Shown here: positions 6,910 through 23,696 of the stretch, piece after piece
Layout of the letters: the number at the start of each line of letters is the position of its first letter
How positions within the stretch are numbered: position 1 is the first letter of the stretch
IMG/VR virus record: IMGVR_UViG_3300032431_000019
Coordinates: 1 to 42,174 of that record
Direction: 5' to 3' (one strand)
Source: a virus
DNA: 42,174 nt
Program-made: the position numbers and the translations under genes
The notes under the pieces: generated by a model
What the model saw: the letters and a program-made list of their open reading frames with translations, nothing else
Told to the model about the DNA's origin: nothing
Database searches by the model: none

Positions 6910-7009
6910 CGGTGATTGTCCTTGTAGCATTAGTTTAGTAGTTAGTAAAGAACTTGAACGCACATTTAGGGTGCAGTCTGGCTAGGGTGTTTCTAGTCAC
7001 CAACGACAT

Positions 7010-7807: not shown

Positions 7808-9747
7808 TAAGAACTCTTCTCCTTGGCTTCATACCAGTTTTTACCATGATGAAACTCGCAAGTGATTGGCACTGCGAAATCTTCACCTACTAATATAGTA
7901 TCATTAGTATAGAGAGAAGTCAACACTTTACAGTAATCATCTGCAAGCCCTTCTGGAGCTTCATATACTACCTCATCATGGACTTGTAACAACTGATGCA
8001 GACCAGCATCTTTTAACTGTCTGTCCACACTAACACTGTTGATATAAGACATTACACCTGAAGCAGCAGTTAAATCTAAGAATGACATTGACGCTCCATT
8101 TTGAAGTACTTTAAACACACTAGATGCACCGCCTTGTATGAGGTAATTAAAGCATTGTCGCGACGCTCTCGCATACTCCTGACCTTGACGGTCATAGACT
8201 ATACCCTCAACACGCAACAATCTACCCATAACATCTTTGAAGCAACCTTTGTTCTTACGCGCATGAGAGATTAGCTCTTCCTTTAACTCCTCGATTGGAG
8301 TAGTAGCATAAATGCGTTTGATTACTTGCTTTGCTTCTTTGACAGCAATACCTGTGATGTGTGCAATCTTATTTGCACCACCACCATACACCAAACAGAA
8401 GATGACAGTTTTTGCTACACGACGTTCACAATGCCACAAGTCTGCATTAGATTGGTGCAAGTCTTCACCTGCACGAACCGCGTCACTCATGCCAGTGAAG
8501 CCAAGCACCAACTCAAGGTAGTAAGCAAGCACAACAAGCTCAATCCTATTAAGGTCGCCAACAACCAAAGAATATCCCTCAGGTGCAATGAAACACTTTC
8601 GGATGTTGTAAGCGTCATCTGCTCTATATGAGTAGGTGTCACCAGCTTTCTTCTGCGCTGGCATATTCTGGAGATTTGGCGCGGCTGACGACAACCTACC
8701 TGTACGAGTGTTAAATTGTTTAAACGATGTTCTGAGTCGTCCACGAGAATCTACTCCATCACGCAATGGTGGTACGAATTTTAATACAGCGTCGAGGTCT
8801 TTAAGCTCAACGATAGACCTTGCCAAAGGGTGAGCCAGTTGCTCTAATGCGTCGCGAGTGAATGATGGTTTGCCCGAACCAGTGAACTCCACGAAGTCGG
8901 TAAAGCCATCTTTAGCGAGTGCCATTTCAATCTGGTCACCACTGTTAGGGTTAAACGGTTTAACAAGGCAGTGGTCGTAGGTGATTTCGTTATTACGCTT
9001 GTTATACCCTACCATCTGGATTTTAGGTCTTGTTGCAAATATTACCTTCTTGGAGTAGATAACTTCTTTGTCAGGTACAAGACCGACACGATTCTCCATG
9101 GCTTGCACCATCTTGAACCGCGCACCGTCTAGGAGTACACCCATAGAGATGAGTTCGGCGGTGTTCATCAATACGCCATTACCTTGCATGGCAATGATGC
9201 GCTCGATGTAGGGTAATTCTACAGTGTGGTAGTAGTCTAGTAAGCGCGGGTCTTGAGCCAGTCTATCTTGGAGGTAGTAAAAGACGTTGCGTGTAATCTC
9301 AACGTCGTTTACGTTGTACTCTTCAAGGTCGAGCGCCCACTCGTCATACTCCTCATCACCCTCTTGAGGTGGAGCAGACTTAAAGTCAAAGTGCATCTTT
9401 TCACCACCACCAGCTTCTTGAGCTAGTGTGGCGAGAGAGTGTGCATTGAGAGGTGCAGGATTGAGACAGTACGACATACACATTGTATCATCGTAATTGC
9501 GAATGTCAAAACCATTGAGGCGCAGAGTAGGTACATCAAAGGCGGCATTGTGGAATACAAACCTGTCATTACGCATTATATACGTTTTTAGGTGAGCAAA
9601 TAAAAGAGTGCTGTCTAGTAAGTCTGTGTAGCTGTAACTAATAGCTGGTTCGTCATCTACAGCTATACCAACTCGAGTAATATGACAGTTAATGTCGTAT
9701 GTACTCTCTAAACCTTGTGTCTCAATGTCACAGAAAATTCTTTGCAT
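7807..9747 (-). CDS. Family A DNA polymerase with 3'-5' exonuclease domain (T7 gp5-like)
   Basis: Motifs seen are ExoI FCDIETQGL, pol motif A SLVVGDLNRIELVVLA, motif B RRVAKTVIFCLVYGGG and motif C LQVHDEVVYE. The start is set at ATG 9747; the track start at 9756 is a TTG three codons upstream. Confidence 0.95.
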   Translation of the reverse strand: MQRIFCDIETQGLESTYDINCHITRVGIAVDDEPAISYSYTDLLDSTLLFAHLKTYIMRNDRFVFHNAAFDVPTLRLNGFDIRNYDDTMCMSYCLNPAPLNAHSLATLAQEAGGGEKMHFDFKSAPPQEGDEEYDEWALDLEEYNVNDVEITRNVFYYLQDRLAQDPRLLDYYHTVELPYIERIIAMQGNGVLMNTAELISMGVLLDGARFKMVQAMENRVGLVPDKEVIYSKKVIFATRPKIQMVGYNKRNNEITYDHCLVKPFNPNSGDQIEMALAKDGFTDFVEFTGSGKPSFTRDALEQLAHPLARSIVELKDLDAVLKFVPPLRDGVDSRGRLRTSFKQFNTRTGRLSSAAPNLQNMPAQKKAGDTYSYRADDAYNIRKCFIAPEGYSLVVGDLNRIELVVLAYYLELVLGFTGMSDAVRAGEDLHQSNADLWHCERRVAKTVIFCLVYGGGANKIAHITGIAVKEAKQVIKRIYATTPIEELKEELISHARKNKGCFKDVMGRLLRVEGIVYDRQGQEYARASRQCFNYLIQGGASSVFKVLQNGASMSFLDLTAASGVMSYINSVSVDRQLKDAGLHQLLQVHDEVVYEAPEGLADDYCKVLTSLYTNDTILVGEDFAVPITCEFHHGKNWYEAKEKSS

Positions 9748-10225
9748 ATACCTCAAAACTCCTGTGGTCTGTGTAGCTCATTGGCAGCGAACGGATACCC
9801 ATCTTGTTTGCCCATGAAATCATTTCTACTCCAGTTAGAGGAAACTTACCATGAGGTGCAGGATTGCCACGCATAAGATGATAGTTCGCTAGTTCTACCT
9901 TTGTCAATTGTGGTGCAATTGCGTAGTGCAAGTCTGGATAGTGAAAGATGGTAGTAGAAAGATAGGGTGCAAGAGCTTCGCGCAACTTGTCAATCTCCTT
10001 AAACTTTGCACCAACAATAACATAGATGTTATCAGTGGTGAGAAAGGAGAAGGTGCTGCTAATTTTCTGCGCGTCATCTTTCTGGAGTACACCCTTTAGC
10101 TCAATGATGAACTTGCCCTCCACATGGAAGTCAGGAACATAATTGCGGATGTACGGAAGAGACAACTCTTCATATGGTAGAGGGTGCTTCTTAATAAAGC
10201 ACTCCTCGAATTGGCTTCGTGTCAT
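9728..10225 (-). CDS. T7 endonuclease I-like Holliday junction resolvase
   Basis: SQFEE...PYEE..LPY...YVPDFHVEGKFIIELKGVLQKDDAQK parallels T7 gp3 (FEYEEWKVPY...YTPDF...FVETKG...DDRKK). A GAGGT Shine-Dalgarno lies 7 nt upstream. Confidence 0.85.
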   Translation of the reverse strand: MTRSQFEECFIKKHPLPYEELSLPYIRNYVPDFHVEGKFIIELKGVLQKDDAQKISSTFSFLTTDNIYVIVGAKFKEIDKLREALAPYLSTTIFHYPDLHYAIAPQLTKVELANYHLMRGNPAPHGKFPLTGVEMISWANKMGIRSLPMSYTDHRSFEVYAKNFL

Positions 10226-10413
10226 TAGGAGTACCTCTGAAGTTTAACGTCACCTTTAAGGTCTTCGCCTACAAAGAATAAAGAACCTTCACCTTTCAAA
10301 TTAGATTGCAACATTAGGGCAACAAAGGATAATGCTAATGCTACAACTTCTTGCTCTGAAAGAGTAGTGCTAATCTGAGAAATGTCGAAAATCATTTCAG
10401 GTGTGAGTTTCAT
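10225..10413 (-). CDS. Hypothetical small protein (62 aa), paralog of 10413-10622
   Basis: It is TAATG-coupled. It shares the pattern E..(x)LAL.(F/Y)VA.M...F.(V/I).ED..G...L with the upstream ORF. Confidence 0.6.
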   Translation of the reverse strand: MKLTPEMIFDISQISTTLSEQEVVALALSFVALMLQSNLKGEGSLFFVGEDLKGDVKLQRYS

Positions 10414-10622
10414 TATGTATCCATGATGAGGGTGATATTACCTGTGTGGTCTTCTGCAATGTAAAACACGCAGTAGTCATCGGAATTAAGCACCTCTTCG
10501 GCGCACATCTCTGCAACATACTTGAGAGCAAGCTTTATTGTGTCCTCTTCGTTTGCCAGATTTTCATGCACATTGCGAATGATATTAATCTGTTTACGCA
10601 TTGCGTCAGTTATTGTCGTCAT
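10413..10622 (-). CDS. Hypothetical small protein (69 aa), paralog of 10225-10413
   Basis: ATG ORF overlapping the primase-helicase stop by 17 nt. See the paralog pattern above. Confidence 0.6.
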   Translation of the reverse strand: MTTITDAMRKQINIIRNVHENLANEEDTIKLALKYVAEMCAEEVLNSDDYCVFYIAEDHTGNITLIMDT

Positions 10623-12237
10623 GTCTTATAATCTCCGTATACTGTTTTGTAACTGAGTCATAACTCAATGTGGCGTTGAGTTGTAATGTGTCACGCATCC
10701 GTGACTTCTTGATAACTTGAAGGTAGCGCATATTGTCTTGAACGTCACCGTTCATTGCAATAACACAGGTGGCTTTCTGTTTAATAGCACCACCTCCACG
10801 AATCTCGCCAAGTGTGACATTGGATGATTCTTTTGTACCCTCAGAGCGAGTGTGCTGAATAGCAATGACGGCAACAGGCGGCTGTCGTTCGTCAGGGTTG
10901 CCTTGAGTCAGTGTTACCAACTCTTGCATAACCCTTGCAGCAACATCGTACTTACCAGCAAAGTCACTGTCGATGTCTTGCAGCACATCTATAAAGATAA
11001 CCTCAACGCCGTGAGTCATAATAGCATTAACGCACGCTTCTATAACTTTGTCAACATCACCAAGTAAGTTGTTGTAGAACAACAAGCCAGACGATATGTA
11101 ATTGACGGCATCACTCTCTGTTTGGGTGTTGATGTCTACTACCCCAAGCTCATTACGGTAAGGGTAGCCAGTGTGTCTCTCGATGAACTTAATCACCATC
11201 TGGTTAGGTAGCATTTCTGTACCTACCCAAAGGCATTTGACACCACAAGTGTGCATATGGTACGCAACGCAACAACCAAGTGTAGACTTGCCGCGTCCTG
11301 TGTGTGCCACAATGATTAACAATTCACCTAATTGTATACCACCACCACCTAACATCCTATTGAGTCCATCGAAGCCCATGTCGATACCAGCAGACGCACC
11401 CATCGAAGTCTTCCACTTGTAGAAGTCTTTTACCAATGAAGTGCCAGTAATGATATCGCTAGATGAGAGTGCAGTCGCATCAGAGTGTGCTTGACGCAAC
11501 TCCTTAACGGTGCACTCACACACATCATTCTTCTTTGGAGGTATAATCATGGCGAAGGTGCGCCATTTGGGTAGTAGTTCTAAAGCTTTTGCCAGTGCTT
11601 CTCTACCAGCATTGTCATTGTCCATGCAAACGTAGATACGCTTGAATGAGCGCACCCACGTTGCTGCGGCTGTAAGAGCCTTTTCTACACTGTCCGTACC
11701 ACTAACACCTACACAGGTATCATGTGGAAAGACTTGGGACATTGCCATCGTGTCGCTTTCACCCTCACATATGAATAAGGTGTCAGACATACTAGACTTG
11801 GTGCGTGTGCCGAACAAAGAATGTGGTGCACCATGCCACCAGATGTGTTTCTTGTTGTCTCGCACTTCGGCAGCGAAGTCGCGATACTTCACACCAGTTA
11901 GTCCACCTTGTAAGTCATAATACGGATAGACCGCAACGTACGTGCCTTGACCATCTTCTTCTAATTGAAACACCTCATACTTGGTGAGGGTTTGTTGGGT
12001 GATAAGACCACCCTTAAAGGACGGGATATATGTCAAGTTAAGCGGCATAGAGGGTGAAGGTATTATACCCTTACTACCCTTCGTTGCCTTCTTATCATAT
12101 GCAGAGTGTACATGGTAACCACAAGCGAAACAGTGTGAACCACCATCGGCGTAGTTCACAAGATTGTCGCCCGACTTGTCGTTACCTTCTTTTCTACACG
12201 CTGGACAAGCGCTTTTACTAATGACAGCGTTAGCCAT
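10606..12237 (-). CDS. Bifunctional primase-helicase (T7 gp4-like)
   Basis: Domains seen are an N-terminal Zn ribbon CPACRK...HCFACG, TOPRIM FICEGESDTMA ... CMDNDNAG, and a DnaB-type helicase with Walker A VAHTGRGKST and Walker B-like IFIDVLQD. GGAGG lies upstream. Confidence 0.93.
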   Translation of the reverse strand: MANAVISKSACPACRKEGNDKSGDNLVNYADGGSHCFACGYHVHSAYDKKATKGSKGIIPSPSMPLNLTYIPSFKGGLITQQTLTKYEVFQLEEDGQGTYVAVYPYYDLQGGLTGVKYRDFAAEVRDNKKHIWWHGAPHSLFGTRTKSSMSDTLFICEGESDTMAMSQVFPHDTCVGVSGTDSVEKALTAAATWVRSFKRIYVCMDNDNAGREALAKALELLPKWRTFAMIIPPKKNDVCECTVKELRQAHSDATALSSSDIITGTSLVKDFYKWKTSMGASAGIDMGFDGLNRMLGGGGIQLGELLIIVAHTGRGKSTLGCCVAYHMHTCGVKCLWVGTEMLPNQMVIKFIERHTGYPYRNELGVVDINTQTESDAVNYISSGLLFYNNLLGDVDKVIEACVNAIMTHGVEVIFIDVLQDIDSDFAGKYDVAARVMQELVTLTQGNPDERQPPVAVIAIQHTRSEGTKESSNVTLGEIRGGGAIKQKATCVIAMNGDVQDNMRYLQVIKKSRMRDTLQLNATLSYDSVTKQYTEIIRHDDNN

Positions 12238-12377
12238 GGATTACCATACCTCCAACCATTGTGACTCTGTTGAAACGAAGTTCTGGATATCCACGAATTC
12301 CCATTTCATAATAGAAAACTGTGTTAAACATCGCTGACAGTTCAAGAATCAGATAGGCACAATAGAGACGGTAGTTT

Positions 12378-12689
12378 CTATGCCTGTTTCGGCGCTTCCA
12401 TCTTTTTTGTTTTCTTACCACGTTTTGTTGCTCCTTTCCTTATATAATAACCCGAACCATTACGATAACCGAGAATACGGCTACCGTCAACCAAATAAAA
12501 CAAATTTATACCTACTTGCTGTTCACCAACCAGCTTGGCGACTCGAATGTATACATAATCCTTAACAGATACGAAATCACCCAAGGGAGTGAGTACCATC
12601 TGTTTAGAGCGCGACACATAAGGATTGCGTATGAAAGTTACTGGAGTAGTGTTCGCGGGTACTCCAGTAAAGAACTCAAACGGTGACAT
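12378..12689 (-). CDS. Hypothetical protein (103 aa), beta-rich with a basic tail
   Basis: ATG ORF in the operon frame series. It overlaps the upstream stop by 14 nt. The C-terminus is KRGKKTKKMEAPKQA. Confidence 0.55.
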   Translation of the reverse strand: MSPFEFFTGVPANTTPVTFIRNPYVSRSKQMVLTPLGDFVSVKDYVYIRVAKLVGEQQVGINLFYLVDGSRILGYRNGSGYYIRKGATKRGKKTKKMEAPKQA

Positions 12690-13002
12690 CCGCTTTTAAG
12701 AATGTGTACAGTTCGTCAGGTGACAAACCAATTTTTACATTTCTACCCAAGCAGGACAGAATGAAGTTCGTACAAAGGTATTGGTTGCGGTTGAACACCC
12801 ATAAGGTAGCTTTAAACCACCAATGACCAAAACCAGACGGCAGTATGTCGCGCAAAGTTGCAGCGCGGTCTGCAATCAACGCCATTTCAAACTCAGATGG
12901 TGATAGTTCTACTTCCCACACAGACTCAACCAAGAAGTCTTGCTGTGTGTATAGCACTCCATTCCATGTGTAGTGAAATAGAGTCTTATTCTGAAAAATC
13001 AT
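12676..13002 (-). CDS. Hypothetical protein (108 aa); very tentative permuted NlpC/P60-like Cys/His pattern
   Basis: The start is trimmed to ATG 13002 (MIFQNK...). The 76-aa upstream extension in the ORF track overlaps the better ORF 12986-13678. Residues HYTW ... CTNFILSCLG suggest His-before-Cys. No other support. Confidence 0.5.
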   Translation of the reverse strand: MIFQNKTLFHYTWNGVLYTQQDFLVESVWEVELSPSEFEMALIADRAATLRDILPSGFGHWWFKATLWVFNRNQYLCTNFILSCLGRNVKIGLSPDELYTFLKADVTV

Positions 13003-13678
13003 CACTACATGGGTCGAGTAGCTCGTCTTCCCCGCTAAGGAGAGAAATAAAGACATCACTTTGGAGTGTTTCGTCCGTACATTCATTCCTAACACCCTCA
13101 ATGAATTGGGTGAGCAAGTGGTCATTGATGAGTGTTTCCACCCACTTGGAGCGCCATGCCCAAGTGTCTTGAGTTTTTTGTTGCGGATAGCGTTCATACT
13201 TCCGCGTGTACCAGTCAATGTAACTTTCATGTCTTCTCCAGAGGGTGAAATAAGTGACTACACTGTAGACTTGCCAAGACGAGGCTTGGTCAGCCGCTAA
13301 GCCGCCTAGTCCCCATCTTCTCATCATCAGTATCGCTTCTATATTAGTGAAGGCACTAATAAAAGCTTTGCAATTCCAGCTAATTGACTTGTCCCATTTA
13401 AGGGCACATAACTCATAAAAAAAAAGTACACGCTGGTCGGTGTACTCTTTATTCTTCTGACGCTGTTGGCGAAAGTGGTTACGTTCTACTTTCTTAATGA
13501 ACCCGTACACTTCATACCATAAGGCTTTACGCTCACTCTCATGAAGGTGCCCGCCGAGGGTGACAAATGGCATAAGCCATTGCAGCGCGTTATATCCTTC
13601 ACCTCCATGCGCCATATGTTCGCGGAGAAGTTCTTCGCGAGTTAAGTCAGGAGGTGCTTTCTTTCTTCTCAGCTTCAT
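12986..13678 (-). CDS. Hypothetical Trp-rich helical protein (230 aa), acidic C-terminus
   Basis: A long ATG ORF with amino-acid composition plausible for a real protein. No motif was recognised. It contains a T9 homopolymer (13417-13425) encoding LFFY. Confidence 0.6.
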   Translation of the reverse strand: MKLRRKKAPPDLTREELLREHMAHGGEGYNALQWLMPFVTLGGHLHESERKALWYEVYGFIKKVERNHFRQQRQKNKEYTDQRVLFFYELCALKWDKSISWNCKAFISAFTNIEAILMMRRWGLGGLAADQASSWQVYSVVTYFTLWRRHESYIDWYTRKYERYPQQKTQDTWAWRSKWVETLINDHLLTQFIEGVRNECTDETLQSDVFISLLSGEDELLDPCSDDFSE

Positions 13679-13823
13679 TGTCTTTTATAATAGGAAACAC
13701 AACAATTAATTCATATATGCTAAGGAGCATATCTTGTTCTTGTTCTGTCAGGTCTACCGCGATTCGTGAGACATGCTGCGCTGCATTATGCGCAACAGTG
13801 TGTAGTTTACAAGCTTTATCCAT
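13647..13823 (-). CDS. Hypothetical small protein (58 aa)
   Basis: The start is moved to ATG 13823, which has GAGGAG 4 nt upstream and overlaps the upstream stop (ATGGATAA). The track start at 13844 lacks a Shine-Dalgarno. Confidence 0.55.
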   Translation of the reverse strand: MDKACKLHTVAHNAAQHVSRIAVDLTEQEQDMLLSIYELIVVFPIIKDNEAEKKESTS

Positions 13824-14064
13824 GATACTCCTCAAAGTTGTCATCGAAGTAAGCTTTAGACACTAACCATTGGTCATTGTGGTCTTTAAGGTTACGAGCT
13901 ATCATGTCTCCAGACTTTGGACTTCCATTTTCTTTGTCAAAATCTGAAATTGAAATTGAAGTATTTAAAGAGTCACCCGCGACATAATGTCGGAGTTCAG
14001 CGATAACTTTTCTTTTGTATCTTTTAAATTCCATTCTTGCACTTAATACAGAGTAACAGTCCAT
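13816..14064 (-). CDS. Hypothetical small protein (82 aa; alternative start 14034)
   Basis: ATG ORF in the operon series. Composition is protein-like. Confidence 0.5.
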   Translation of the reverse strand: MDCYSVLSARMEFKRYKRKVIAELRHYVAGDSLNTSISISDFDKENGSPKSGDMIARNLKDHNDQWLVSKAYFDDNFEEYHG

Positions 14065-14111
14065 TGCACAGTAAAGAGTGTGCAGTTATTAGCCGCACAC
14101 TCCAGAGGTTA

Positions 14112-15209
14112 TTAGAAGCGCTTGCTGAAGAGCTTACCCTTTCCAGTGGGTGCTTTCTTGGCAGCTTTAGCCTTGAGAGGCTCCTTGATGTCGTTATCTA
14201 CCTTCCATGCGTCGAACACGAAAGCAGACACCTTCGCAGAACCACGAGCGATATTAGCATCTGTCGCGGTAGCCAAGAACTTGGTTTCGCAAGCAACATA
14301 ATTGTCAGCCAACCAGTGGATAGAACCCAAAAATTCTTTCTCATTTGTGAGGTACTTCTTGGCTTTAGCAAAGAAAGACTTACCAAATGACAGAAGGGTG
14401 CTTTCGCGACGTTGCAACTCACCACTGTACAATGTGAGAACTGTGCCAAATGCTTCGGCGGCTGATAGTCTGCCACTGAAAGCTGCTCTTACGAGAGATT
14501 CGGCGTTGTACTCAATGTTGAGTGAAGACAACTTGAACGCGGCTTTTTCACCAGCATATGCCTTACGGCTTGCGTTATCGGCAAGTACAAGTGCACCACT
14601 GAGGAGTGTATCTTCTACACCCTCTGCGTTAACGCTAGATGACACCAAACACTGCAATTCTTGGTTTAGCCAAGAGTCGTCGAGAATATTGACACCTGCG
14701 CTGTGAGCAATTAGAGAGAGGGTAGTGATGCGATGGCGCAAACCTACACCAACATACTCCAGCAGACCAGTCAAAATATTAACACGTTCGGTAACGTGCG
14801 GAGCGCTTAACAGTTGTTGAACTGTGAAGAAGCCAATTTGTGGGTCGGCGAGAATACCACTGATAGATGTCACGTTGATTTCGCTCTGCGTACCATACGC
14901 GTCGCTTTCCTCAATGGCATCATACAGCTCCTGAATTGTGAGGTAGCGCAATTCGCGAGTAATGCTACCTTGAAAGCGTGTGTACAAGAAACTGGTGTCG
15001 CCAGATTCTACGCCATCTTTGAAGGTTGGCGCATCTTCGCTATTGCTGAAGTCTGCAACTAGACTAGCCGCCTTACTGGTTAGACCAGATAACAACACAG
15101 AATAAGCTGTGTCGCCATTGTCGTTAACAGGAGATTCATCAACGAAGATGCCTTGCACATATGTACATTCAACACCTTCAATCTCTTCTTCTTCTGGTTC
15201 AAATCCCAT
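14112..15209 (-). CDS. Hypothetical helical protein (365 aa); acidic N-terminus, basic C-terminal tail ending GKLFSKRF
   Basis: A long ATG ORF with AAGAGAG upstream. Its tail resembles that of the ParB-like protein (17115-18008). Confidence 0.65.
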   Translation of the reverse strand: MGFEPEEEEIEGVECTYVQGIFVDESPVNDNGDTAYSVLLSGLTSKAASLVADFSNSEDAPTFKDGVESGDTSFLYTRFQGSITRELRYLTIQELYDAIEESDAYGTQSEINVTSISGILADPQIGFFTVQQLLSAPHVTERVNILTGLLEYVGVGLRHRITTLSLIAHSAGVNILDDSWLNQELQCLVSSSVNAEGVEDTLLSGALVLADNASRKAYAGEKAAFKLSSLNIEYNAESLVRAAFSGRLSAAEAFGTVLTLYSGELQRRESTLLSFGKSFFAKAKKYLTNEKEFLGSIHWLADNYVACETKFLATATDANIARGSAKVSAFVFDAWKVDNDIKEPLKAKAAKKAPTGKGKLFSKRF

Positions 15210-15286
15210 TATATACTCTCTTTGCGGTGGGTTAGTGTACCACCACGCTGCACTAGATGTGCAGACGGCTCCTTTTCTTTATACCC

Positions 15287-15305
15287 TCTGTGAAGTCAAG
15301 AGGTG
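15287..15305. repeat. 19-nt exact repeat, copy 1 (tctgtgaagtcaagaggtg); minus-strand reading CACCTCTTGACTTCACAGA
   Basis: It is identical to 15859-15877. Both copies are flanked by tatacc(c/a). It is intergenic, upstream of gene 14112-15209. Confidence 0.85.
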
Positions 15306-15311
15306 CAGAAT

Positions 15312-15809
15312 TTACGTCTGTTTAACAGATACTTCTACCATCTGGTCTTCTGAAACTTTAACTTCGAGTAGAGTTGTCGTTCTACCTGATGGGTAGCCAG
15401 CTCTATTGGCGCTAAGCTTGAATGATGGGTGCTTTCCATCAGGTAATACCAAGAAGAAAGCATCACCAATCTCTACCTCTGAAAACTTAACACGTTTGTA
15501 CTTCGTTGTCAAGACGCGGTTAGGGTAGTGTTTGCTCTTATCGCTACCAATCAAGTCAAAGATTTCAGTGTCTCTAATGTACTGTTCATCTGACTTTAGA
15601 TAAGTCTCGTTCAGTTCCTTAAGTCCGTCAACACTCTCTGCCATGACTGTGTACTGCGTGGTTTGCTCAAAACCAGCAGTTCTAACACCTTGCTCACGAT
15701 ATATCAAATGACAGTATAGAGCTACTGAATACTTTCTACAACCGTAACCGCCTGAGTCAGAACAGAAGTAAGGACAGTCAATTTCTCTGCAAACATTAAT
15801 AAGTGACAT
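15312..15809 (-). CDS. Hypothetical protein (165 aa) with a Cys-rich N-terminus
   Basis: The N-terminus reads CREIDCPYFCSDSGGYGCRKYSVALYC (five Cys in 27 aa, possibly metal-binding). The ATG follows promoter 15843-15871. Confidence 0.6.
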   Translation of the reverse strand: MSLINVCREIDCPYFCSDSGGYGCRKYSVALYCHLIYREQGVRTAGFEQTTQYTVMAESVDGLKELNETYLKSDEQYIRDTEIFDLIGSDKSKHYPNRVLTTKYKRVKFSEVEIGDAFFLVLPDGKHPSFKLSANRAGYPSGRTTTLLEVKVSEDQMVEVSVKQT

Positions 15810-15839
15810 TTGGTTTCCGTTTGTAATTTAAGTTGTAAG

Positions 15840-15857
15840 GGTATAGTAGGCTATACC
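15840..15857. repeat. Intergenic palindromic hairpin, variant copy (GGTATAG-TAGG-CTATACC)
   Basis: A 7-bp inverted repeat related to the 8-bp palindromes at 16733-16752 and 17085-17104. It overlaps the spacer and -10 of promoter 15843-15871. Confidence 0.8.
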
Positions 15858-15871
15858 ATCTGTGAAGTCAA
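15843..15871 (-). promoter_or_regulatory. Sigma70-type promoter TTGACT-17-TACTAT
   Basis: The minus strand reads cacctcTTGACTtcacagatggtatagccTACTATaccc. The -35 is at 15866-15871 and the -10 at 15843-15848, with a 17-nt spacer. It lies about 35 nt upstream of ATG 15809. Confidence 0.6.
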
Positions 15872-15877
15872 GAGGTG
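15859..15877. repeat. 19-nt exact repeat, copy 2; contains the -35 of promoter 15843-15871 and overlaps the stop of gene 15868-16104
   Basis: Identical to 15287-15305. Confidence 0.85.
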
Positions 15878-16104
15878 GTGTAGTAATTTTTAGCAAGTTT
15901 GACACAAAGCTCTAGTGCTTCTTGCATTGAATCAGTTACTACAAAAGGGCGTAAATCGTTAACGTTACTATACACGCAAACTTGACCATTTAAGTAATGT
16001 TCACGCTGATTAGGATAGTCATCCATGTGTCGTAGACGAGCAGAGAGCTTATCTAGTATACACTTGATAGTAGCGTGTGTAGATGGTATGTAGAATATTT
16101 GCAT
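15868..16104 (-). CDS. Hypothetical early protein (78 aa), paralog of 16762-17049
   Basis: The shared C-terminal block is VVTDSMQEALELCVKLAKNYY here versus VVIDSMQEALEFCLSVIQDYY in the paralog. Confidence 0.7.
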   Translation of the reverse strand: MQIFYIPSTHATIKCILDKLSARLRHMDDYPNQREHYLNGQVCVYSNVNDLRPFVVTDSMQEALELCVKLAKNYYTTS

Positions 16105-16128
16105 TGTTTGTTGTTACCTTATGTAAAA

Positions 16129-16320
16129 TTAAGAAGTGAACGCGCCACCTTTAGTGGTTATAATACGGTGTACTGCTTTGTCAGACCATTGAAATCCAAC
16201 GTGTGTTTTTAAATCTACCACAGTCATAAACTGTTTGCTAAAACCTGCAAGTATCGCAGGATTACCATCTAATGTGATACCTACTTCATCAGACAATTTT
16301 ACAAGTTCGGCTCTAGTCAT
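16129..16320 (-). CDS. Hypothetical early protein (63 aa)
   Basis: The start is set at ATG 16320. The GTG at 16362 in the track would sit at the predicted transcription start of promoter 16369-16397. The leader is ACAACAAACAAACAAACAA. Confidence 0.55.
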   Translation of the reverse strand: MTRAELVKLSDEVGITLDGNPAILAGFSKQFMTVVDLKTHVGFQWSDKAVHRIITTKGGAFTS

Positions 16321-16368
16321 TTGTTTGTTTGTTTGTTGTAATTTAACGTGGCTTAATTCCACCTCTAT

Positions 16369-16397
16369 ATACTACCACCATATCAATTGGGTGTCAA
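16369..16397 (-). promoter_or_regulatory. Sigma70-type promoter TTGACA-17-TAGTAT with TGn extended -10
   Basis: The minus strand reads agagTTGACAcccaattgatatggtggTAGTATatag. The -35 is at 16392-16397 and the -10 at 16369-16374. It lies directly downstream of terminator 16488-16517. Confidence 0.7.
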
Positions 16398-16425
16398 CTC
16401 TTATTTTGAGTTACTCCGCAACAGG

Positions 16426-16453
16426 TTGATGATAGTTCACTTGCGCGTATAAT
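16426..16453 (+). promoter_or_regulatory. Plus-strand (antisense) promoter-like element TTGATG-16-TATAAT
   Basis: A perfect -10 hexamer lies at 16448-16453 and a -35-like TTGATG at 16426-16431. It points against the early operon, with no convincing plus-strand gene downstream. Confidence 0.4.
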
Positions 16454-16487
16454 ATAATTGAACGTGCGCGAGGAAGAATTTTTAGAC

Positions 16488-16517
16488 AAAAAAAAAGTCC
16501 TACCGATTAAGGTAGGA
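16488..16517 (-). terminator. Intrinsic terminator (minus strand)
   Basis: The minus strand reads TCCTACC-ttaatc-GGTAGGA followed by C and a T9 run (plus-strand A9 at 16488-16496). It lies 8 nt after the stop of the small ORF 16525-16698. Confidence 0.6.
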
Positions 16518-16524
16518 AGGAAAG

Positions 16525-16698
16525 TTAAGAATAGGCTAGATCCCAGATATTTTCTAAACCCTCATAAGAAATGTAGCACATCATCACATCGTCAAAATCT
16601 CCCAGATCCTCGATTTTGTCGTATGTATCAAGCTTGTCGCAAGAGTGACTAGCTCTAAGATATTGAATGTAATAGGCAAGAAGTAAGTAGTAAATCAC
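16525..16698 (-). CDS. Possible small acidic early protein (57 aa, GTG start)
   Basis: It is not in the ORF track because it is under 60 aa. It reads VIYYLLLAYYIQYLRASHSCDKLDTYDKIEDLGDFDDVMMCYISYEGLENIWDLAYS. It is co-oriented with the operon and followed by a terminator. It has no Shine-Dalgarno. Confidence 0.35.
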   Translation of the reverse strand: MIYYLLLAYYIQYLRASHSCDKLDTYDKIEDLGDFDDVMMCYISYEGLENIWDLAYS

Positions 16699-16732
16699 GA
16701 TTGTAGTTATAAGGTTTGTTAGAAGGAAGGAA

Positions 16733-16752
16733 GGGTATAGGCGGCTATACCC
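16733..16752. repeat. Intergenic palindromic hairpin GGGTATAG-GCGG-CTATACCC (copy)
   Basis: An 8-bp perfect inverted repeat with a 4-nt centre. A 23-nt block (agggtataggcggctatacccta) is identical to 17084-17106. It lies 10 nt after the stop of 16762-17049. Confidence 0.85.
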
Positions 16753-16761
16753 TAAGGAAGA

Positions 16762-17049
16762 TTAAACGTAATAGTCTTGAATGACAGATAGACAAAACTC
16801 AAGCGCTTCTTGCATAGAGTCAATTACAACCATTGTATGTCTACCATCTTTAGCCTTTACAAATAAAGAAACATCACGGTCAAGACTAACCATGTTGTTA
16901 GATGTATTGAATTTAGACGCAATATCAAAGCGCTTAGCAAGCTTAGCTAACACAAAGTCTACAGCCTTAATGCAACTGTCAGTAGTTAAAGTAGCTACAT
17001 CTAATGGTTCAAGTGTGAATACTGTAGATTGTACTTTTTGATTAATCAT
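16762..17049 (-). CDS. Hypothetical early protein (95 aa), paralog of 15868-16104
   Basis: See the paralog block above. ATG start with the leader caacaaattaca. Confidence 0.7.
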   Translation of the reverse strand: MINQKVQSTVFTLEPLDVATLTTDSCIKAVDFVLAKLAKRFDIASKFNTSNNMVSLDRDVSLFVKAKDGRHTMVVIDSMQEALEFCLSVIQDYYV

Positions 17050-17084
17050 TGTAATTTGTTGATAGTGATTTTTAGAAGTAGAGA

Positions 17085-17104
17085 GGGTATAGGCGGCTAT
17101 ACCC
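17085..17104. repeat. Intergenic palindromic hairpin GGGTATAG-GCGG-CTATACCC (copy)
   Basis: Identical to 16733-16752. It lies 11 nt after the stop of the ParB-like gene. Confidence 0.85.
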
Positions 17105-17114
17105 TATTGGATTG

Positions 17115-18008
17115 TTAGCCTAACTTGCGACTGAACAAAGTTGCTTTAGCATTGCGTTTAGCCTGTTTCTTTTGGGGTGCTTCTTGTACCTCTAAACCCA
17201 ATTCAGCGATGATGGAGTCAACAACTACATTGGATGAGCGCTGTACAGCGGTCACGTTTGAAACCTTACACGCGGTTTCAATGCTGGACAACATTGAGTC
17301 CATAAGGTCACAGATTTCTGCAAAGCTGTAGTGCATCTTGACGCAAGCGCTGTAGAATGTACCGCCTATACCTTGGACTGTGGTGATAGAGCGTTCTCCA
17401 AACTCGTTAGCAGTGTATGAAAACCAACAAGCGTTGGAATAGCCATCTTTCTTGGACAAGATGTTTTCACGCGCCGCTCTCAGACAGTCGTTGCAGTTAG
17501 GCTCTACACCATACTTGGCAAGCTTGAACCCCGCTGTCTCCCCTTTTGTCACAGAGCGCGATCCGTTGCTAGTCAATACCATGCTCATCGCAAGACCGAT
17601 AGAGTCAGGACGGAACAAGACAACGTTAATCAATGTATCCATTGATAAACCGTATCGCGTTAGCTCAAACAGAGCGCTTATTCTATGTCTACCAGATACG
17701 GCATAATAGGTATCATCTACAACAGCAACAAAGATAGGTTGCTGAAGTACACCTGAAACCAAGAAACCGCCTGAAGTGTCAAATAACACTTTCTGGATTT
17801 TAGAATCAGAAATGTCTGCTTGCATACCCAAGTCAGCTACATTTCGCATAGCACCAAGCAAATCAGTTAGCGCCATCAAGTCAGACACAAAGTCAATTTG
17901 GTATTGACTGAAGTCAGCGCTCATCGCTGCACATTCTGACTTGATGATTGCGATTTGTTCAGCGCTGTAGGTAGCGAAGGTTTCTTTAGTCGTTAGTGAT
18001 TCAGACAT
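17115..18008 (-). CDS. ParB/Srx-superfamily (ParB-like nuclease domain) protein; basic C-terminal tail ending KATLFSRKLG
   Basis: The segment FVAVVDDTYYAVSGRHRISALFEL matches the ParB N-terminal-domain GxxR / DGQHR-like box. It is an early-arm ATG ORF. Confidence 0.6.
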   Translation of the reverse strand: MSESLTTKETFATYSAEQIAIIKSECAAMSADFSQYQIDFVSDLMALTDLLGAMRNVADLGMQADISDSKIQKVLFDTSGGFLVSGVLQQPIFVAVVDDTYYAVSGRHRISALFELTRYGLSMDTLINVVLFRPDSIGLAMSMVLTSNGSRSVTKGETAGFKLAKYGVEPNCNDCLRAARENILSKKDGYSNACWFSYTANEFGERSITTVQGIGGTFYSACVKMHYSFAEICDLMDSMLSSIETACKVSNVTAVQRSSNVVVDSIIAELGLEVQEAPQKKQAKRNAKATLFSRKLG

Positions 18009-18083
18009 TGGAGTTAATTTCCGTGATAGTTGGTTACTGGAGTATAACCATATATGTACCGTTTGCTAGACGATACAGTATGG

Positions 18084-18323
18084 TTAGACTTGCGATAGAG
18101 TGATTAAAGCACTGATAATCATCATGCATTGCTTATAGCTGTGACATAAGTCTATACACTTCACAATGTCAATTGTTGGTTGATATTTTGTTGAAACGTG
18201 CATACCAATCACCACATATTCCATAAGATGCTTGGCTAAATTTTCTTTCTTCTGTGCGTTCATCGCATCTATAGCAGTACTGATAGAGTTATGGCATTGA
18301 ATGTAGCTATTAATAGATTGCAT
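18084..18323 (-). CDS. Hypothetical early protein (79 aa)
   Basis: ATG ORF with the leader caggtaacaacca and no Shine-Dalgarno. Confidence 0.55.
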   Translation of the reverse strand: MQSINSYIQCHNSISTAIDAMNAQKKENLAKHLMEYVVIGMHVSTKYQPTIDIVKCIDLCHSYKQCMMIISALITLSQV

Positions 18324-18353
18324 TGGTTGTTACCTGTAATTGGTTATGAGAGT

Positions 18354-18382
18354 AGTAAAGCAGAAGTGAGAATGAATGTCAA
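18354..18382 (-). promoter_or_regulatory. Weak candidate promoter TTGACA-17-TTTACT
   Basis: The -35 TTGACA (18377-18382) sits in the decamer aatgtcaagc, which is shared with promoter 18563-18591. The -10 is poor. Confidence 0.3.
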
Positions 18383-18537
18383 GCAATTGTGATTTGAATT
18401 TTGTTAGTTGGTTGATGGTGACATGGCATCAGAAAAGAAGGATACCAGTATCGCGCCTCTACAATTTTATACACAATACGGATATGTAGCGCTTTACGAG
18501 TGTAGTTAATAGCTCTAGCTGTTTTATGTGTGTTCAT
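18379..18537 (-). CDS. Possible first early gene (52 aa, basic)
   Basis: It is not in the track because it is under 60 aa. The ATG at 18537 lies about 25 nt downstream of the -10 of promoter 18563-18591. It reads MNTHKTARAINYTRKALHIRIVYKIVEARYWYPSFLMPCHHQPTNKIQITIA. Confidence 0.4.
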   Translation of the reverse strand: MNTHKTARAINYTRKALHIRIVYKIVEARYWYPSFLMPCHHQPTNKIQITIA

Positions 18538-18562
18538 GTCGGTTGGTTTGGTTTACCTAATT

Positions 18563-18591
18563 AATGTAGTTCCTTATTGGCGCAATGTCAA
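18563..18591 (-). promoter_or_regulatory. Sigma70-type early promoter TTGACA-17-TACATT
   Basis: The minus strand reads gcgcTTGACAttgcgccaataaggaacTACATTaatt. The -35 is at 18586-18591 and the -10 at 18563-18568. It is the outermost promoter of the minus-strand arm. Confidence 0.7.
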
Positions 18592-18753
18592 GCGCTAACC
18601 TAGTTTAGATTGTTATTGTGTAGCTGTAACGATTGGTGAGTATAGGTTGTAGGTAGTAAATATTGTTTGTGTGATGTGTGGTAACAGGTCTGAATTGGTA
18701 AACCTATTAAGCCTCACACATAACTATCATAACTCCCATTAAGGAATTGCACC

Positions 18754-18821
18754 CACACACACAGTATTAATCGCACTCGCGCACGCGCACACATATGCAG
18801 ACACGCGCGCGTATATGTACG
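18754..18821. repeat. Alternating purine-pyrimidine (Z-DNA-prone) tracts
   Basis: The tracts are (CA)5 at 18754-18763, a perfect 22-nt RY alternation at 18778-18799 (cgcgcacgcgcacacatatgca) and a 21-nt alternation at 18801-18821 (acacgcgcgcgtatatgtacg). Confidence 0.85.
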
Positions 18822-18900
18822 AACACGAATTTTGTGTAAATAAAATATGATGAAAATGTTGTAAAGTTTGTGAAGTAAATTGTTCGTAGGGGGAAACGGC

Positions 18901-18921
18901 TAACTACTAACTACTAACTAG
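18901..18921. repeat. Tandem heptamer iteron TAACTAC x3
   Basis: The sequence ggcTAACTACTAACTACTAACTAgat was read directly. Confidence 0.85.
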
Positions 18922-18930
18922 ATATCCTTA

Positions 18931-18954
18931 AAATTTATGTGAAAATTTATGTGA
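18931..18954. repeat. Tandem 12-bp direct repeat AAATTTATGTGA x2
   Basis: The sequence aaatttatgtgaaaatttatgtga was read directly. Confidence 0.9.
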
Positions 18955-18962
18955 AAAATAAC

Positions 18963-18998
18963 TACACCACCTCAATTCTTACACCATCTCTTTACACC
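18963..18998. repeat. Three spaced TACACC boxes
   Basis: The boxes are cTACACCa at 18963, tTACACCa at 18980 and tTACACCc at 18993, spaced by 17 and 13 nt. Confidence 0.6.
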
Positions 18999-19178
18999 CT
19001 CATATAGAGGCGCGACAGCGCCAGTGAACAGTCATGAACTACTGTCTTCTATTATATTATATTAAGGCTCCGCTTTTACCATTGTCTTAGTATACTCTTT
19101 ATATAGATAGTGGGTATATAGTAATCGATTGTAACAATTGTTTACACTCACAATCAATGGAGTGGTACAACATACACT

Positions 19179-19574
19179 ATGACAGCCGTATGCAATGAGT
19201 ATAAAAATATGAGCAATGCGCAGAGCATTTACAACGCTATCGTCCAGAAGCAACAAATTGAAGAGGTCGAGCTTGCAGTCGAAGATTACAAGCTGCTCGT
19301 CAAGAAGGCGCACCAAGGACACATTTACGGTAGAACAACACACCCAAGTAGAGAGGCAAAGGAATTAGATGGGCATGGGAACTCCAGCACCGATGGTGAG
19401 TGGTCCGACACAAGCGGAACTCGACCAGAGACAGAGGCAATTCGACGTGACGACATCGATGCAGCGCGAGAGTCAGGCGCAACAGATGGGATTGCAGGAA
19501 CGACAGTTGGTGCTCCAAAGAGAGGCGCAAAACCGTCAGTTGGAGGCGCAGCAAAGAGAGGTGCAAATCGCTGA
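19179..19574 (+). CDS. Questionable first late ORF (131 aa); only the N-terminal approximately 60 aa look protein-like
   Basis: The ATG has GGAGTGG 13 nt upstream. The last 206 nt overlap the better-supported ORF 19369-19794 in another frame, and there the translation becomes low complexity. Confidence 0.3.
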   Translation: MTAVCNEYKNMSNAQSIYNAIVQKQQIEEVELAVEDYKLLVKKAHQGHIYGRTTHPSREAKELDGHGNSSTDGEWSDTSGTRPETEAIRRDDIDAARESGATDGIAGTTVGAPKRGAKPSVGGAAKRGANR

Positions 19575-19794
19575 CAACGGTAGTCGGCGCAACACTCTCT
19601 TGCAGCGGTCGGCTAATATGGCAGCATCAAACGATGCTTCGCTGTTTGGCAGTATGCAAGGTGAGCAGTCGGCGCTGACTTCTAACGTTTCTAACACAGC
19701 GAAGGAAAAACAGAAGAAGGTTTCTGCTACGTCGAATGATGACAGAACAAATCTTATAAGTTCACTCACCCGCGCTCGGAGTATATATGGCTAA
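19369..19794 (+). CDS. Gln-rich coiled-coil protein (141 aa), probable virion or assembly protein
   Basis: AAGGA lies 5 nt upstream of the ATG. Q/E/R heptad-like repeats resemble the Q-rich protein at 32611-33678. Confidence 0.65.
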   Translation: MGMGTPAPMVSGPTQAELDQRQRQFDVTTSMQRESQAQQMGLQERQLVLQREAQNRQLEAQQREVQIADNGSRRNTLLQRSANMAASNDASLFGSMQGEQSALTSNVSNTAKEKQKKVSATSNDDRTNLISSLTRARSIYG

Positions 19795-21697: not shown

Positions 21698-22099
21698 ATG
21701 TTCATACCAGTATCAAACCTAGAACGCGCCAAAGAATTAAGCGAAAAGCTATATAGCTTATCGCGCCCAAATCCTAGCCCCGATGACGTTACAACATCGC
21801 TAATTAGTTGGATAGTCAACCCTACTGATGGACGGGTAATGGCAGACATTCCTGATGGTATTCGCTTACCCGTAGCTGTCGCGAGTGACCCTAAGATACT
21901 CGCAACGCTATTACAACCGTTTGTAATCGCGGGTAAAATAACGGCGGCTGATGTAATCGCAGTCGAGACTAAACTAACGCAGGACAAAGGCAATAGCGTT
22001 TTATTGACTGACATCTTGCCTAATTTCTGGCTCAATGAAGCGCAGACTTTTGAACAACTAAAAGCGGATGGCTGGTTCTTCGACCCTCTGAGTTTTTAA
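21698..22099 (+). CDS. Hypothetical protein (133 aa) in the position of a small terminase subunit
   Basis: It lies immediately upstream of, and is tightly coupled to, TerL. No DNA-binding motif was recognised. Confidence 0.45.
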   Translation: MFIPVSNLERAKELSEKLYSLSRPNPSPDDVTTSLISWIVNPTDGRVMADIPDGIRLPVAVASDPKILATLLQPFVIAGKITAADVIAVETKLTQDKGNSVLLTDILPNFWLNEAQTFEQLKADGWFFDPLSF

Positions 22100-22100
22100 A

Positions 22101-23696
22101 ATGAGTATTTTAGATAATCCATGGGAGTTGTGCGACGCTCTAGATTACCGTGGAGGTGCGCGCAACTTTTCTGCTATTCATTTTGAAATGATGGAAGAGT
22201 TGTGTAGTCCGCAACTCGACGATTACCAGTATGCGTCAAAGTTTGTGAAGGTTTCGCGAGGTCACCTCAAATCGACCTTGCTAATTTTATATATTCTTTG
22301 GCGCATTTATCGCAACCCAAACATTCGCATACTGTACTCCACAAACACTAAAGACTTGTCGCGCTCTTTCGTCAGAGAGGTGCGGCAGTATTTTGAGAGT
22401 GCAGAATTGCAAGACTCAGTGTGGAATAACCGCGAACACATAAGCGGTAATCTAGTACCTGCGCTAGATGCTGGCACTCGACGACGACGAAGTATGAGTG
22501 GTGATAATGATACAGAAGCGGCAGATAAAAAGATAATTTGGTCACGCGAAGCAATTCAAGTAATACGACCGAAGAAACTTAAAGAGCCTACTCTCGTTGC
22601 CGCTTCTATTTTATCTACCAACACTGGTGAGCATTACGATTTAATTATTAACGATGATGCTGTTGACTTCCAAAACTCTGACACAGAAGAGAAAGCTGAC
22701 AAAATTAAGGATTGGGCAATGGACGCGTACAGTGTTCTTGACCCGCCAATGTTTGACCAGACTACACCCACATTTGGAGAGTGGTTAGGTAACTCAATGT
22801 ATGTAATTGGTACAACCTACTACCCTTGGGATTACTACTCATTCATTGAACAAAATACTGATGCACTCGGCTTTTGCACCTTCGAGGCAAACATCTACGT
22901 TAATGGTATAAATAGTGAAGACGGCTACACCTACCCTGAAAAGTTCAATGATGCTTATGTCACATCATTGATGGGTAGAATGTCGCGCAAGAAGTTTTCC
23001 GCACAGTACCTTCTGCGTCACATTTCTGACGAAGATGTTATACTCGATGAAAGTCTTATTAATTATGTTGCACCCGCACAAGTGCATTTTACTGGTGACG
23101 GTTTTGCAACTGTAAATATTGGTGGTGGTCTTCAAAAGAGAATACGCCTCTTCATGGTGGTAGACCCATCGTCAGGTAAAACAAAGGGTGCAATCGACAA
23201 CACCGCAATTGCAGTAGGTGGTCAAGATGAGGCGCTCAATCTGTACGTCTTATATTTATATGCAAAGCGCACACTCACACACGAAACAATTAAACTGATT
23301 TATGAGCTATCAAGTAAGTATGGGTTGGTGTCTTGCTTTGTTCTTATACGAGGTGTGGGTGAACTTCTACCCCATGCGATAACTCGCGAACGCGCAACGT
23401 ACAACAAAAACATTGTAGTTAAACCAGTGCACGAAACTGGTAACAAAAAGTTGCGCATTACAAACGCGCTACAACCTATAATTAAACTTGGTAAATTGTA
23501 TGCTACCTCATGGGTGCAACTACACACGCCATTTATAAAAGAACTGCGCCAACATCCAGAGGGTACACAAGATGACTGTCTTGATGTGGTCACTGGTTTG
23601 GTGACAATTTCTTCAGGTACTCGACAAGGTAAACCAAATAGTGATAAGAGATGCAGACATCTAAAAATAAACAAAAAGTACGGCGGCTCGTTGTAG
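22101..23696 (+). CDS. terL: Terminase large subunit
   Basis: It has a Walker A-like VSRGHLKSTLL, an ATPase coupling region and a C-terminal nuclease-like MVVDPSSGKTKGAIDNTAIAVGG. It is 531 aa and lies directly upstream of the portal. Confidence 0.85.
   Translation: MSILDNPWELCDALDYRGGARNFSAIHFEMMEELCSPQLDDYQYASKFVKVSRGHLKSTLLILYILWRIYRNPNIRILYSTNTKDLSRSFVREVRQYFESAELQDSVWNNREHISGNLVPALDAGTRRRRSMSGDNDTEAADKKIIWSREAIQVIRPKKLKEPTLVAASILSTNTGEHYDLIINDDAVDFQNSDTEEKADKIKDWAMDAYSVLDPPMFDQTTPTFGEWLGNSMYVIGTTYYPWDYYSFIEQNTDALGFCTFEANIYVNGINSEDGYTYPEKFNDAYVTSLMGRMSRKKFSAQYLLRHISDEDVILDESLINYVAPAQVHFTGDGFATVNIGGGLQKRIRLFMVVDPSSGKTKGAIDNTAIAVGGQDEALNLYVLYLYAKRTLTHETIKLIYELSSKYGLVSCFVLIRGVGELLPHAITRERATYNKNIVVKPVHETGNKKLRITNALQPIIKLGKLYATSWVQLHTPFIKELRQHPEGTQDDCLDVVTGLVTISSGTRQGKPNSDKRCRHLKINKKYGGSL

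Follow-up and report, generated by a model that had tools for sequence, protein, structure and literature searches.

A gene-free hub as the probable terminal-repeat junction of an uncultured Saffermanviridae-like podovirus

The Saffermanviridae are freshwater cyanopodoviruses, a group for which a genome layout in two arms and terminal repeats have been described (PMC10140849). They are the nearest cultured relatives of the virus studied here, IMG/VR record IMGVR_UViG_3300032431_000019, whose whole stretch of 42,174 nucleotides is referred to below as the window. Between its two divergent gene arms lies a structured, gene-free region (positions 18538–19178, hereafter the hub), which an earlier note, made from the letters alone, had presented as a candidate origin, packaging region or switch. 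We compared the hub with the recorded ends of Saffermanviridae isolates and with the hubs of uncultured relatives. It is probably the place at which the assembler joined the ends of a podovirus genome that is physically linear and terminally redundant. We likewise rate as probable that it is the terminal-repeat or concatemer-junction region of a Saffermanviridae-like podovirus belonging to a separate uncultured clade.

Seven Saffermanviridae isolates were read: PP, Pf-WMP3, LPP-1, LPP-2, Pf-WMP4, A-4L and TR020. PP, Pf-WMP3, A-4L and Pf-WMP4, in their linear records, have the polymerase gene on the plus strand, about 9–12 kb from the left end, and that of the large terminase subunit (TerL) on the minus strand, 2.3–3 kb from the right end. 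In the isolates, early and late arms thus start at opposite ends, so that their direct terminal repeats (DTRs) fall in the divergent hub once the genome is circularised. These DTRs measure 107 bp in Pf-WMP4, 115 bp in LPP-1, 216 bp in TR020, 222 bp in PP (exact; 234 bp at 97%), 234 bp in Pf-WMP3, 237 bp in LPP-2 and 810 bp in A-4L. All seven records start with 19–26 nt followed by the motif TCCCCCC. In LPP-1, Pf-WMP4, TR020 and A-4L a box made of an A-tract and a T-tract (A/T box) lies 5–14 nt outside the left-end cut. The Pf-WMP4 record annotates host promoters (pORF1-4) before each early open reading frame (ORF), and in PP a TTGACA hexamer lies inside the DTR.

The window resembles these genomes in size (about 42 kb) and layout. 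Its first and last 127 bases (1–127 and 42048–42174) are identical, and it represents a complete podophage genome with a unique length of 42,047 bp, assembled as a circle. Judged from its sequence, the 127-bp repeat is the k-mer overlap of a circular de Bruijn assembly and no biological terminal repeat. Because the assembly is circular, the internal position of the hub is no argument against termini. The IMG/VR contig of a relative starts within the hub; we considered this start as a marker of a terminus and rejected it, since this contig also has a 127-bp end overlap, which explains it. The minus (early) arm of the window, from 2193 to 18323, holds the replication genes, T7-like in function (primase-helicase, family A polymerase, ligase, Cas4-like exonuclease and Sak-like annealase). 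Genes for terminase, portal, scaffold, capsid and tail proteins occupy the plus (late) arm, from 19179, with the small and large terminase ORFs at 21698–22099 and 22101–23696. Among the gene products of the window no phage RNA polymerase was detected, which fits a dependence on host promoters, as in Saffermanviridae.

The top cultured matches of the window TerL are the isolates with DTRs of 107–810 bp (31–38% identity over 98–100% for TerL, 27–29% for the DNA polymerase); weaker TerL matches include Vibrio and Roseobacter phages. As in the isolates, a divergent gene-free hub separates arms starting, once the genome is opened there, at opposite ends. It lies upstream of TerL, whose start is 2.9 kb away in the window compared with 2–3 kb in the isolates. 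This synteny, together with the conserved and correctly oriented candidate counterpart of the C-run box described below, supports the packaging option among the three that had been offered.

Close relatives in the public collections searched form a small clade with TerL proteins 74–81% identical. Six clade hubs were compared, i.e. those of the window, of its closest relative L027, which comes from a metagenome scan, and of L001/L002, L003, L005 and L088, all from IMG/VR. The metagenome scan, made with an alignment of p141, was swamped by low-complexity patterns and returned this one locus. The clade hubs can be aligned in short blocks only. Outside the hub the window genome lacks these conserved blocks, so that they are not a repeated phage promoter. 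A search with the hub DNA against 50,697 phage records gave no match. A second contig, found by exact-protein look-up, has an identical hub and thus brings no information on polymorphism.

One of these blocks is a G-box, TAGGGGGAA, which reads TTCCCCCTA on the early-arm strand (T(T/A)CCCCCTA) and is well placed and oriented as a candidate counterpart of the terminal TCCCCCC box of the isolates. It is invariant as TAGGGGG(A/T)A in the six clade hubs. Runs of at least five G or C occur twice only in the 42 kb, at 18889 (the G-box) and at 41378, and of the two only the G-box has an A/T tract as far behind it as expected. The genome as a whole strongly avoids G/C homopolymers: a rough estimate from composition, which was not computed, would give some tens of such runs.

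Downstream of the G-box all six hubs carry an A/T box, AAAATTTATGTGA in the window, with the clade consensus AAAAT(T/A)TATG(T/C)G. The distance from the start of the G-box to this box is exactly 43 nt in all six, despite unrelated filler sequences between them. The filler contains (TAACTAC)3 in the window and in L027, a GT/GTAT tract in L001 and L003, (GACTC)3 in L005 and (ACTTT)3 in L088; its tandem periodicity is above background in most hubs. In the window the array actually reads TAACTAC TAACTAC TAACTAG, the third copy being imperfect. The window, L027 and L088 carry the A/T box twice, the other clade hubs once; in the window it forms a perfect 12-nt tandem duplication of AAATTTATGTGA (18931–18954) and is unique to the hub. 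The positions of the main hub elements are given in Table 1; every element listed in the earlier note is present where that note had placed it.

Table 1. Features of the hub (window coordinates; DTR, direct terminal repeat; RY, alternating purine-pyrimidine).
Feature	Position	Strand	Remark
Early promoter TTGACA-17 nt-TACATT	18563–18591 (18591 to 18563)	minus	host sigma-70 type, leftward
GT-rich tract	18600–18690		candidate far DTR boundary (DTR about 230–280 nt if so)
(CA)5	18754–18763		within predicted DTR or at its far boundary, like the RY runs
Perfect RY runs, 22 nt and 21 nt	18778–18799, 18801–18821		longest two in genome
AT-rich spacer, 77% AT	18826–18885		not conserved
G-box TAGGGGGAA	18887–18895	minus	candidate counterpart of terminal TCCCCCC box
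Variable filler of fixed length, TAACTAC array at 18901–18921	18896–18929		predicted left end about 18912–18926
A-tract/T-tract box AAAATTTATGTG(A)	18930–18954	plus	just outside predicted end, in predicted right-end unique DNA
CTACACC box and two further TACACC	18962–18998 (TACACC at 18963, 18980, 18993)	plus	
GGCGC-gaca-GCGCC hairpin	19009–19022		at indel site 19015–19040
Blocks ACTGTCTTCTATTATATTATATTAAGGCTCCGCTTTTAC and TTGTCTTAGTAT..TATATA	19041–19106		kept in clade, unique in genome
ATTATATTATATTA, (ATTAT)n-like	19051–19064		element listed by earlier note
Promoter-like TTGATT-18-TACAAT	19128–19157	minus	leftward; scan 9/12 with TG

The same arrangement was then sought beyond the clade. 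A TerL-profile scan of IMG/VR gave about 35 contigs at 32–39% identity. A G run of at least six, upstream of TerL and in the window orientation, was found at 18 loci, i.e. 15 uncultured contigs (TerL 33–39% identical) and the IMG/VR records of Pf-WMP3, A-4L and Pf-WMP4. In most of these outer relatives an A/T box of the AAA(A)TTT..CAC type (e.g. AAAATTTACAC or AAATTTGACA) follows the G-run by 34–39 nt. The p141 and p159 proteins, the first late proteins, have homologues in three outer contigs; their genes adjoin the G-run hub in L059 and L056, and in L055 they lie just upstream of TerL, where no G6 run was found. Tandem arrays stand directly beside the G-run box in L059 (3 x 33 nt, 3360–3458) and in L067 (4 x 19 nt, 336–430). 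On these sequences, repeat arrays next to the predicted end are a recurrent trait of the wider group. An array also adjoins the G-run box in L037 (60–152), and the outer arrays include 2 x 25 nt and 12-nt repeats.

When the distances between C-run and end recorded in the isolates are transferred to the window, the left physical end is predicted at about 18912–18926, within or just after the TAACTAC repeats. The A/T box would then start 4–18 nt beyond the end. The packaged genome, on the minus strand and in the direction of the early arm, would begin there and run through the C-run box TTCCCCCTA (18895–18887), the AT-rich spacer and the RY tracts to reach the early promoter about 320–350 nt from the end. 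The end bearing this TTGACA promoter would enter the cell first, and the promoter would fire once inside, with transcription by the host polymerase. The DTR would extend from the end to a far boundary, as a single copy in the hub and as two copies in virion DNA. By analogy with the isolates, this far boundary may lie at 18778–18821, giving a DTR of about 100–145 bp, or in the GT-rich tract kept in the clade, at 18640–18690, giving about 230–280 bp. To the right of the predicted end would stand the unique right-end DNA that abuts the repeat in concatemers; it would carry AAAATTTATGTGA and the CTACACC boxes, then what is left of an XRE cassette and, as far as 19178, the conserved blocks.

The C-run box and the A/T box, kept at a fixed distance, could constitute a two-part recognition site across the concatemer junction. 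A terminase of the T7 type would cut the filler, unconstrained in sequence, between the two boxes. The repeat would be restored by another cut, made at the far boundary, and subsequent fill-in synthesis. The structured hub of an uncultured phage thereby becomes a concrete and testable prediction: ends at about 18912–18926, a DTR of about 100–330 bp and an early promoter about 320–350 nt inside the end. The succession of C-run box, fixed spacer and A/T box would also give a simple rule to orient and trim circular Saffermanviridae-like assemblies.

In T7, a second cut and fill-in synthesis duplicate the terminal repeat, which is reportedly flanked by arrays of short 7-bp repeats. The predicted maturation of the window genome would share with T7 a direct terminal repeat regenerated from one concatemer copy, and strong host promoters near the left end, the first to enter. 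It differs in that all T7 genes point in one direction and T7 uses its own RNA polymerase; moreover, neither a C-run box nor RY tracts are known from T7, and no sequence similarity to it was seen, no search aimed at one having been made. For T7, PMC3276506 (citing Zhang and Studier 2004 and Yamagishi 1985) places recognition sequences within a few percent of the ends and mentions a short junction signal involved in starting maturation.

Several points weigh against a terminal-repeat junction. The evidence on the ends of the window phage comes from assembled contigs, which keeps our confidence at no more than probable. Contig ends are no denser near the hub than at other positions, so that the assemblies give no independent support for termini. 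The window box reads C5-TA where the isolates have C6-G, and an nhmmer profile built on the sites of the outer relatives misses the window site (E = 41). The link to the isolates thus rests on position, orientation, spacing and rarity, and not on a sequence score. Identity of TerL to that of phages with known ends is just 31–38%, and the proteins of the window clade are more generally 27–38% identical to those of Saffermanviridae. Counts over loci are not phylogenetically independent. Lastly, two candidates compete for the far DTR boundary.

The early promoter, already named by the earlier note, is the best sigma-70-like match in 18000–19600 (10/12 in a promoter scan). Its TTGACA is invariant in the six clade hubs and the 17-nt spacing is kept although the spacer sequences are unrelated, which supports the assignment. 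The -10 hexamer is TACATT, TAACTT or GATAGT in single hubs and TAGATT in three. In the clade hubs this promoter lies 288–316 nt to the left of the G-box, i.e. just inside the predicted end, as do the host-type early promoters of Saffermanviridae. A GT-rich tract occurs at the position given in Table 1 in all clade relatives. Further promoter-like sites of the TTGACA type precede small early ORFs (18330–18384, and 16397, 15871 and 15512 on the minus strand). A cassette TTGACA..CTGCTTTACTA..CCAATTACAGGT(A/T)A recurs, sometimes several times, in L003, L005 and L001, and resembles the 'host promoter pORF1-4' annotations of Pf-WMP4.

Between the early promoter and the G-box lie the RY tracts. The two perfect runs of the window are the longest of its genome, the next being 15 and 12 nt. 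A single run of at least 21 nt arises in 4.3% of genomes simulated with an order-1 Markov model; two adjacent ones are thus far beyond chance, and the earlier remark that such runs are unusual is borne out. RY runs occupy the same place in all clade relatives, in sequences that cannot be aligned: 17, 26, 17, 19 and 14 nt in L027, 27 and 21 nt in L003, 23 nt in L005 and six runs of 13–16 nt in L088. Over 21 loci, 25 runs of at least 13 nt lie within 350 nt of the G-box (13.7 kb) against 10 in the other 264.5 kb; the excess is 48-fold (binomial p ~2e-25, for lineages that are not independent). A GT-type RY run (in window orientation) straddles the far DTR boundary in LPP-1, LPP-2, Pf-WMP3 and Pf-WMP4, and in PP, Pf-WMP3 and LPP-2 a further RY run lies at nt 5–19 of the genome. 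Thus RY runs of GT/CA type are found at or near repeat boundaries in Saffermanviridae too; those of the window are much longer and more numerous, and the filler at its predicted end is a tandem repeat. As far as these sequences tell, the RY tracts are conserved as a property and not as a sequence.

The tracts had been described as Z-DNA-prone, an observation that is real in sequence terms: at 18778–18821 the alternation exceeds 12 bp and is rich in CG and CA. Like the Z-forming d(CG)n and d(CA)n tracts known ahead of or between active promoters, they show perfect RY alternation with CG and CA steps, here between divergent arms, where according to the twin-domain model negative supercoiling would accumulate. 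They differ by their TA steps, which disfavour Z-DNA, and are candidates for the Z-form. The potential of the RY tract to form hairpins or cruciforms shows no excess (z = +0.46).

One could suppose that the RY tracts and short tandem repeats are unselected, slippage-prone filler and that only the promoter is functional. Tracts and fillers that differ in every relative, as expected from microsatellite turnover, and the RY tract's want of structural excess would agree with this. Yet in six hubs the filler has the same length to the nucleotide and stands between conserved boxes, RY runs show a 48-fold enrichment near the G-box across many lineages and one straddles the far DTR boundary in four isolates; we find this explanation very improbable. 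The opposite proposal, that a two-part end site is common to the Saffermanviridae and their sister clade and that the RY tracts are functional parts of it rather than neutral filler, is speculative and rather doubtful in its full extent. Under it the tracts might, for instance, designate the site of the second cut, or detect or take up supercoiling from the diverging arms. The literature search returned no report tying Z-DNA or RY tracts to phage ends; an RY enrichment around them, if functional, would be an unusual case of sequence prone to non-B-DNA in phage genome maturation. This enrichment and the fixed-spacing two-box end signature are perhaps worth the attention of specialists.

The hub might also be an origin of replication, one of the options of the earlier note, its repeats being iterons bound by an early protein and its AT block an unwinding element. 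As in the iteron origins of plasmids and lambdoid phages, direct repeats stand beside AT-rich non-coding DNA; of the three 60-nt windows richest in AT in the genome, two fall in the hub, replication genes occupy the adjacent arm and the box arrays of L059 and L067 stand at the equivalent place. The block does reach 77% AT, but several other 60-nt windows (2101, 17018, 28989) tie with it, so that it is not exceptional; moreover it is replaced by more RY tracts in L027, the closest relative, and cannot be aligned in the others. The three repeat families that had been read as iterons are present; their units of 7, 12 and 6 nt, in two or three copies, fall short of iterons of 17–22 bp. TAACTAC x3 is kept in L027 only, unrelated tandem repeats taking its place in the other hubs. 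As repeats the hub families are thus mostly not conserved, and no initiator was identified adjacent to the hub. Cumulative GC skew does not switch in the hub: its minimum, raw and detrended, is at 15,752, 2.8 kb inside the early arm, and its detrended maximum at 4,657, also outside. An origin function is not supported, though it is possible as a secondary role; as the explanation of the hub we regard it as very unlikely. The promoter-proximal early arm (15300–18400) has a GC content of 37–40% and a skew opposite to that of the rest of the arm.

A neighbouring early protein of 297 aa (17115–18008, minus strand) had been named as a ParB-like candidate binder. This label is not confirmed: the protein has no Pfam or PHROG match, and its one faint resemblance (E = 0.9), around a GRHR motif, is to sulfiredoxin. 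In L003 and L005 its identity is 57%; a pattern search made with it found no relatives. A 571-aa protein with an AAA_5/MCM-like P-loop domain (3338–5053, minus strand), encoded among the replication genes, is a possible initiator or helicase loader.

To the right of the A/T box conservation is less regular. The first CTACACC is kept after this box in the window, L001, L003 and L005 and is displaced in L027 and L088. TACACC is present three times in the window and L027, twice in L001 and once each in L003 and L005; TCTACACC has three copies in L027 and two in L001. The hexamer occurs 50 times in the genome, so that its cluster in the hub is weak evidence alone. Farther on, conserved blocks surround TATTATATTA-TAAGGCTCCGCTTTT and TTG(A/T)CTTAGTAT. 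Of the repeats whose conservation had been put forward as a check, the A/T box is thus found in all hubs and CTACACC in most; TAACTAC x3 is limited to L027, and the hairpin is not conserved. This hairpin belongs to a 56-nt segment (18995–19050, with a second 5-bp stem) with a DNA fold z-score of -2.9. It was rejected as a conserved element, since it sits at an indel and is not kept in the other relatives. Where the window has 26 nt at this indel (19015–19040), L027 has about 240 nt, an insert with a gene (1908–2246, minus strand) for a 112-aa HTH_3/XRE protein (Pfam E = 4.7e-9). The blocks at 19041–19106 supply the start codon region and the GGAG ribosome-binding site of this gene, its start region being provided by the ATTAT-rich block; on inspection they show no consistent sigma-70 spacing.

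Another explanation is that the hub is a divergent transcription-control region only and that packaging proceeds otherwise, e.g. by headful with permuted ends. The G-box, A/T box, TACACC boxes and palindrome would then be promoter or operator elements of an early-late switch, with a transcription start expected at about 18966, 7 nt downstream of TGAAAAAT. Promoter-like sites face both directions, the assemblies are circular, and in several outer relatives AAAATTT precedes TTGACA-like hexamers in the manner of an UP element and a -35 box. In L027 the gene of the XRE protein, which resembles a repressor, stands beside a near-palindrome, TGTAACAATTGTTTACA (19130–19146 in the window), which overlaps the promoter-like site at 19128–19157; this site faces the XRE gene in L027 and is not kept in more distant relatives. 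A switch is thus plausible in L027, as far as its sequence indicates, and gives indirect support to the switch option of the earlier note. Among the six clade hubs only that of L027 has the XRE gene; of the set the window keeps the promoter-like site (19157–19128) and the palindrome, its only near-palindrome, next to a 26-nt remnant, with no regulator gene in its hub. Also contrary to a pure control region, in every characterised relative by TerL the ends are fixed and carry DTRs that fall in the corresponding hub, the C-run stands at a fixed distance from the ends in all seven isolates, the boxes occur nowhere else in the genome and, on inspection, no consistent -10 lies 16–18 nt after the A/T box in relatives. 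Neither this box nor the TTG(A/T)CTTAGTAT block was retained as a sigma-70 late promoter, for want of consistent -35/-10 spacing across relatives. On balance we hold a control region without fixed ends in the hub to be unlikely, and keep the junction of terminal repeats as the preferred explanation.

The XRE gene of L027 has parallels: the GIY-YIG gene of Pf-WMP3 and an intron-associated endonuclease of TR020 occupy an equivalent place. These three cases suggest that the hub is a hotspot where accessory or mobile genes insert, a trait shared by the window clade and the Saffermanviridae.

That the hub has no convincing ORF is confirmed, as none longer than 34 aa lies wholly inside 18538–19178. 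The sole longer ORF touching it is antisense (93 aa, 19062–19343). Searches of the hub with Rfam, at gathering threshold and permissively, and a tRNA scan gave nothing credible. The first two late ORFs (131 aa, 19179–19574; 141 aa, 19369–19794) share 206 nt, read in different frames, and each of them matches relatives by tblastn (44–53% and 67–89% identity respectively). The 141-aa product is clearly a real protein; coding over the full length of the 131-aa frame is putative. At the window ends gene orientation changes a second time, small minus-strand ORFs (39314–42151) being followed by plus-strand ones (39–1913), among them a tail-fibre-like gene (39–1202), so that the layout is not simply one of two arms. 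On the early side, the 52-aa ORF that adjoins the hub (18379–18537, minus strand) is replaced in L027 by an unrelated ORF of equal length (1290–1448), and both sit between the same two promoter cassettes. This swap suggests either exchangeable early-gene cassettes or that the ORF is no gene.

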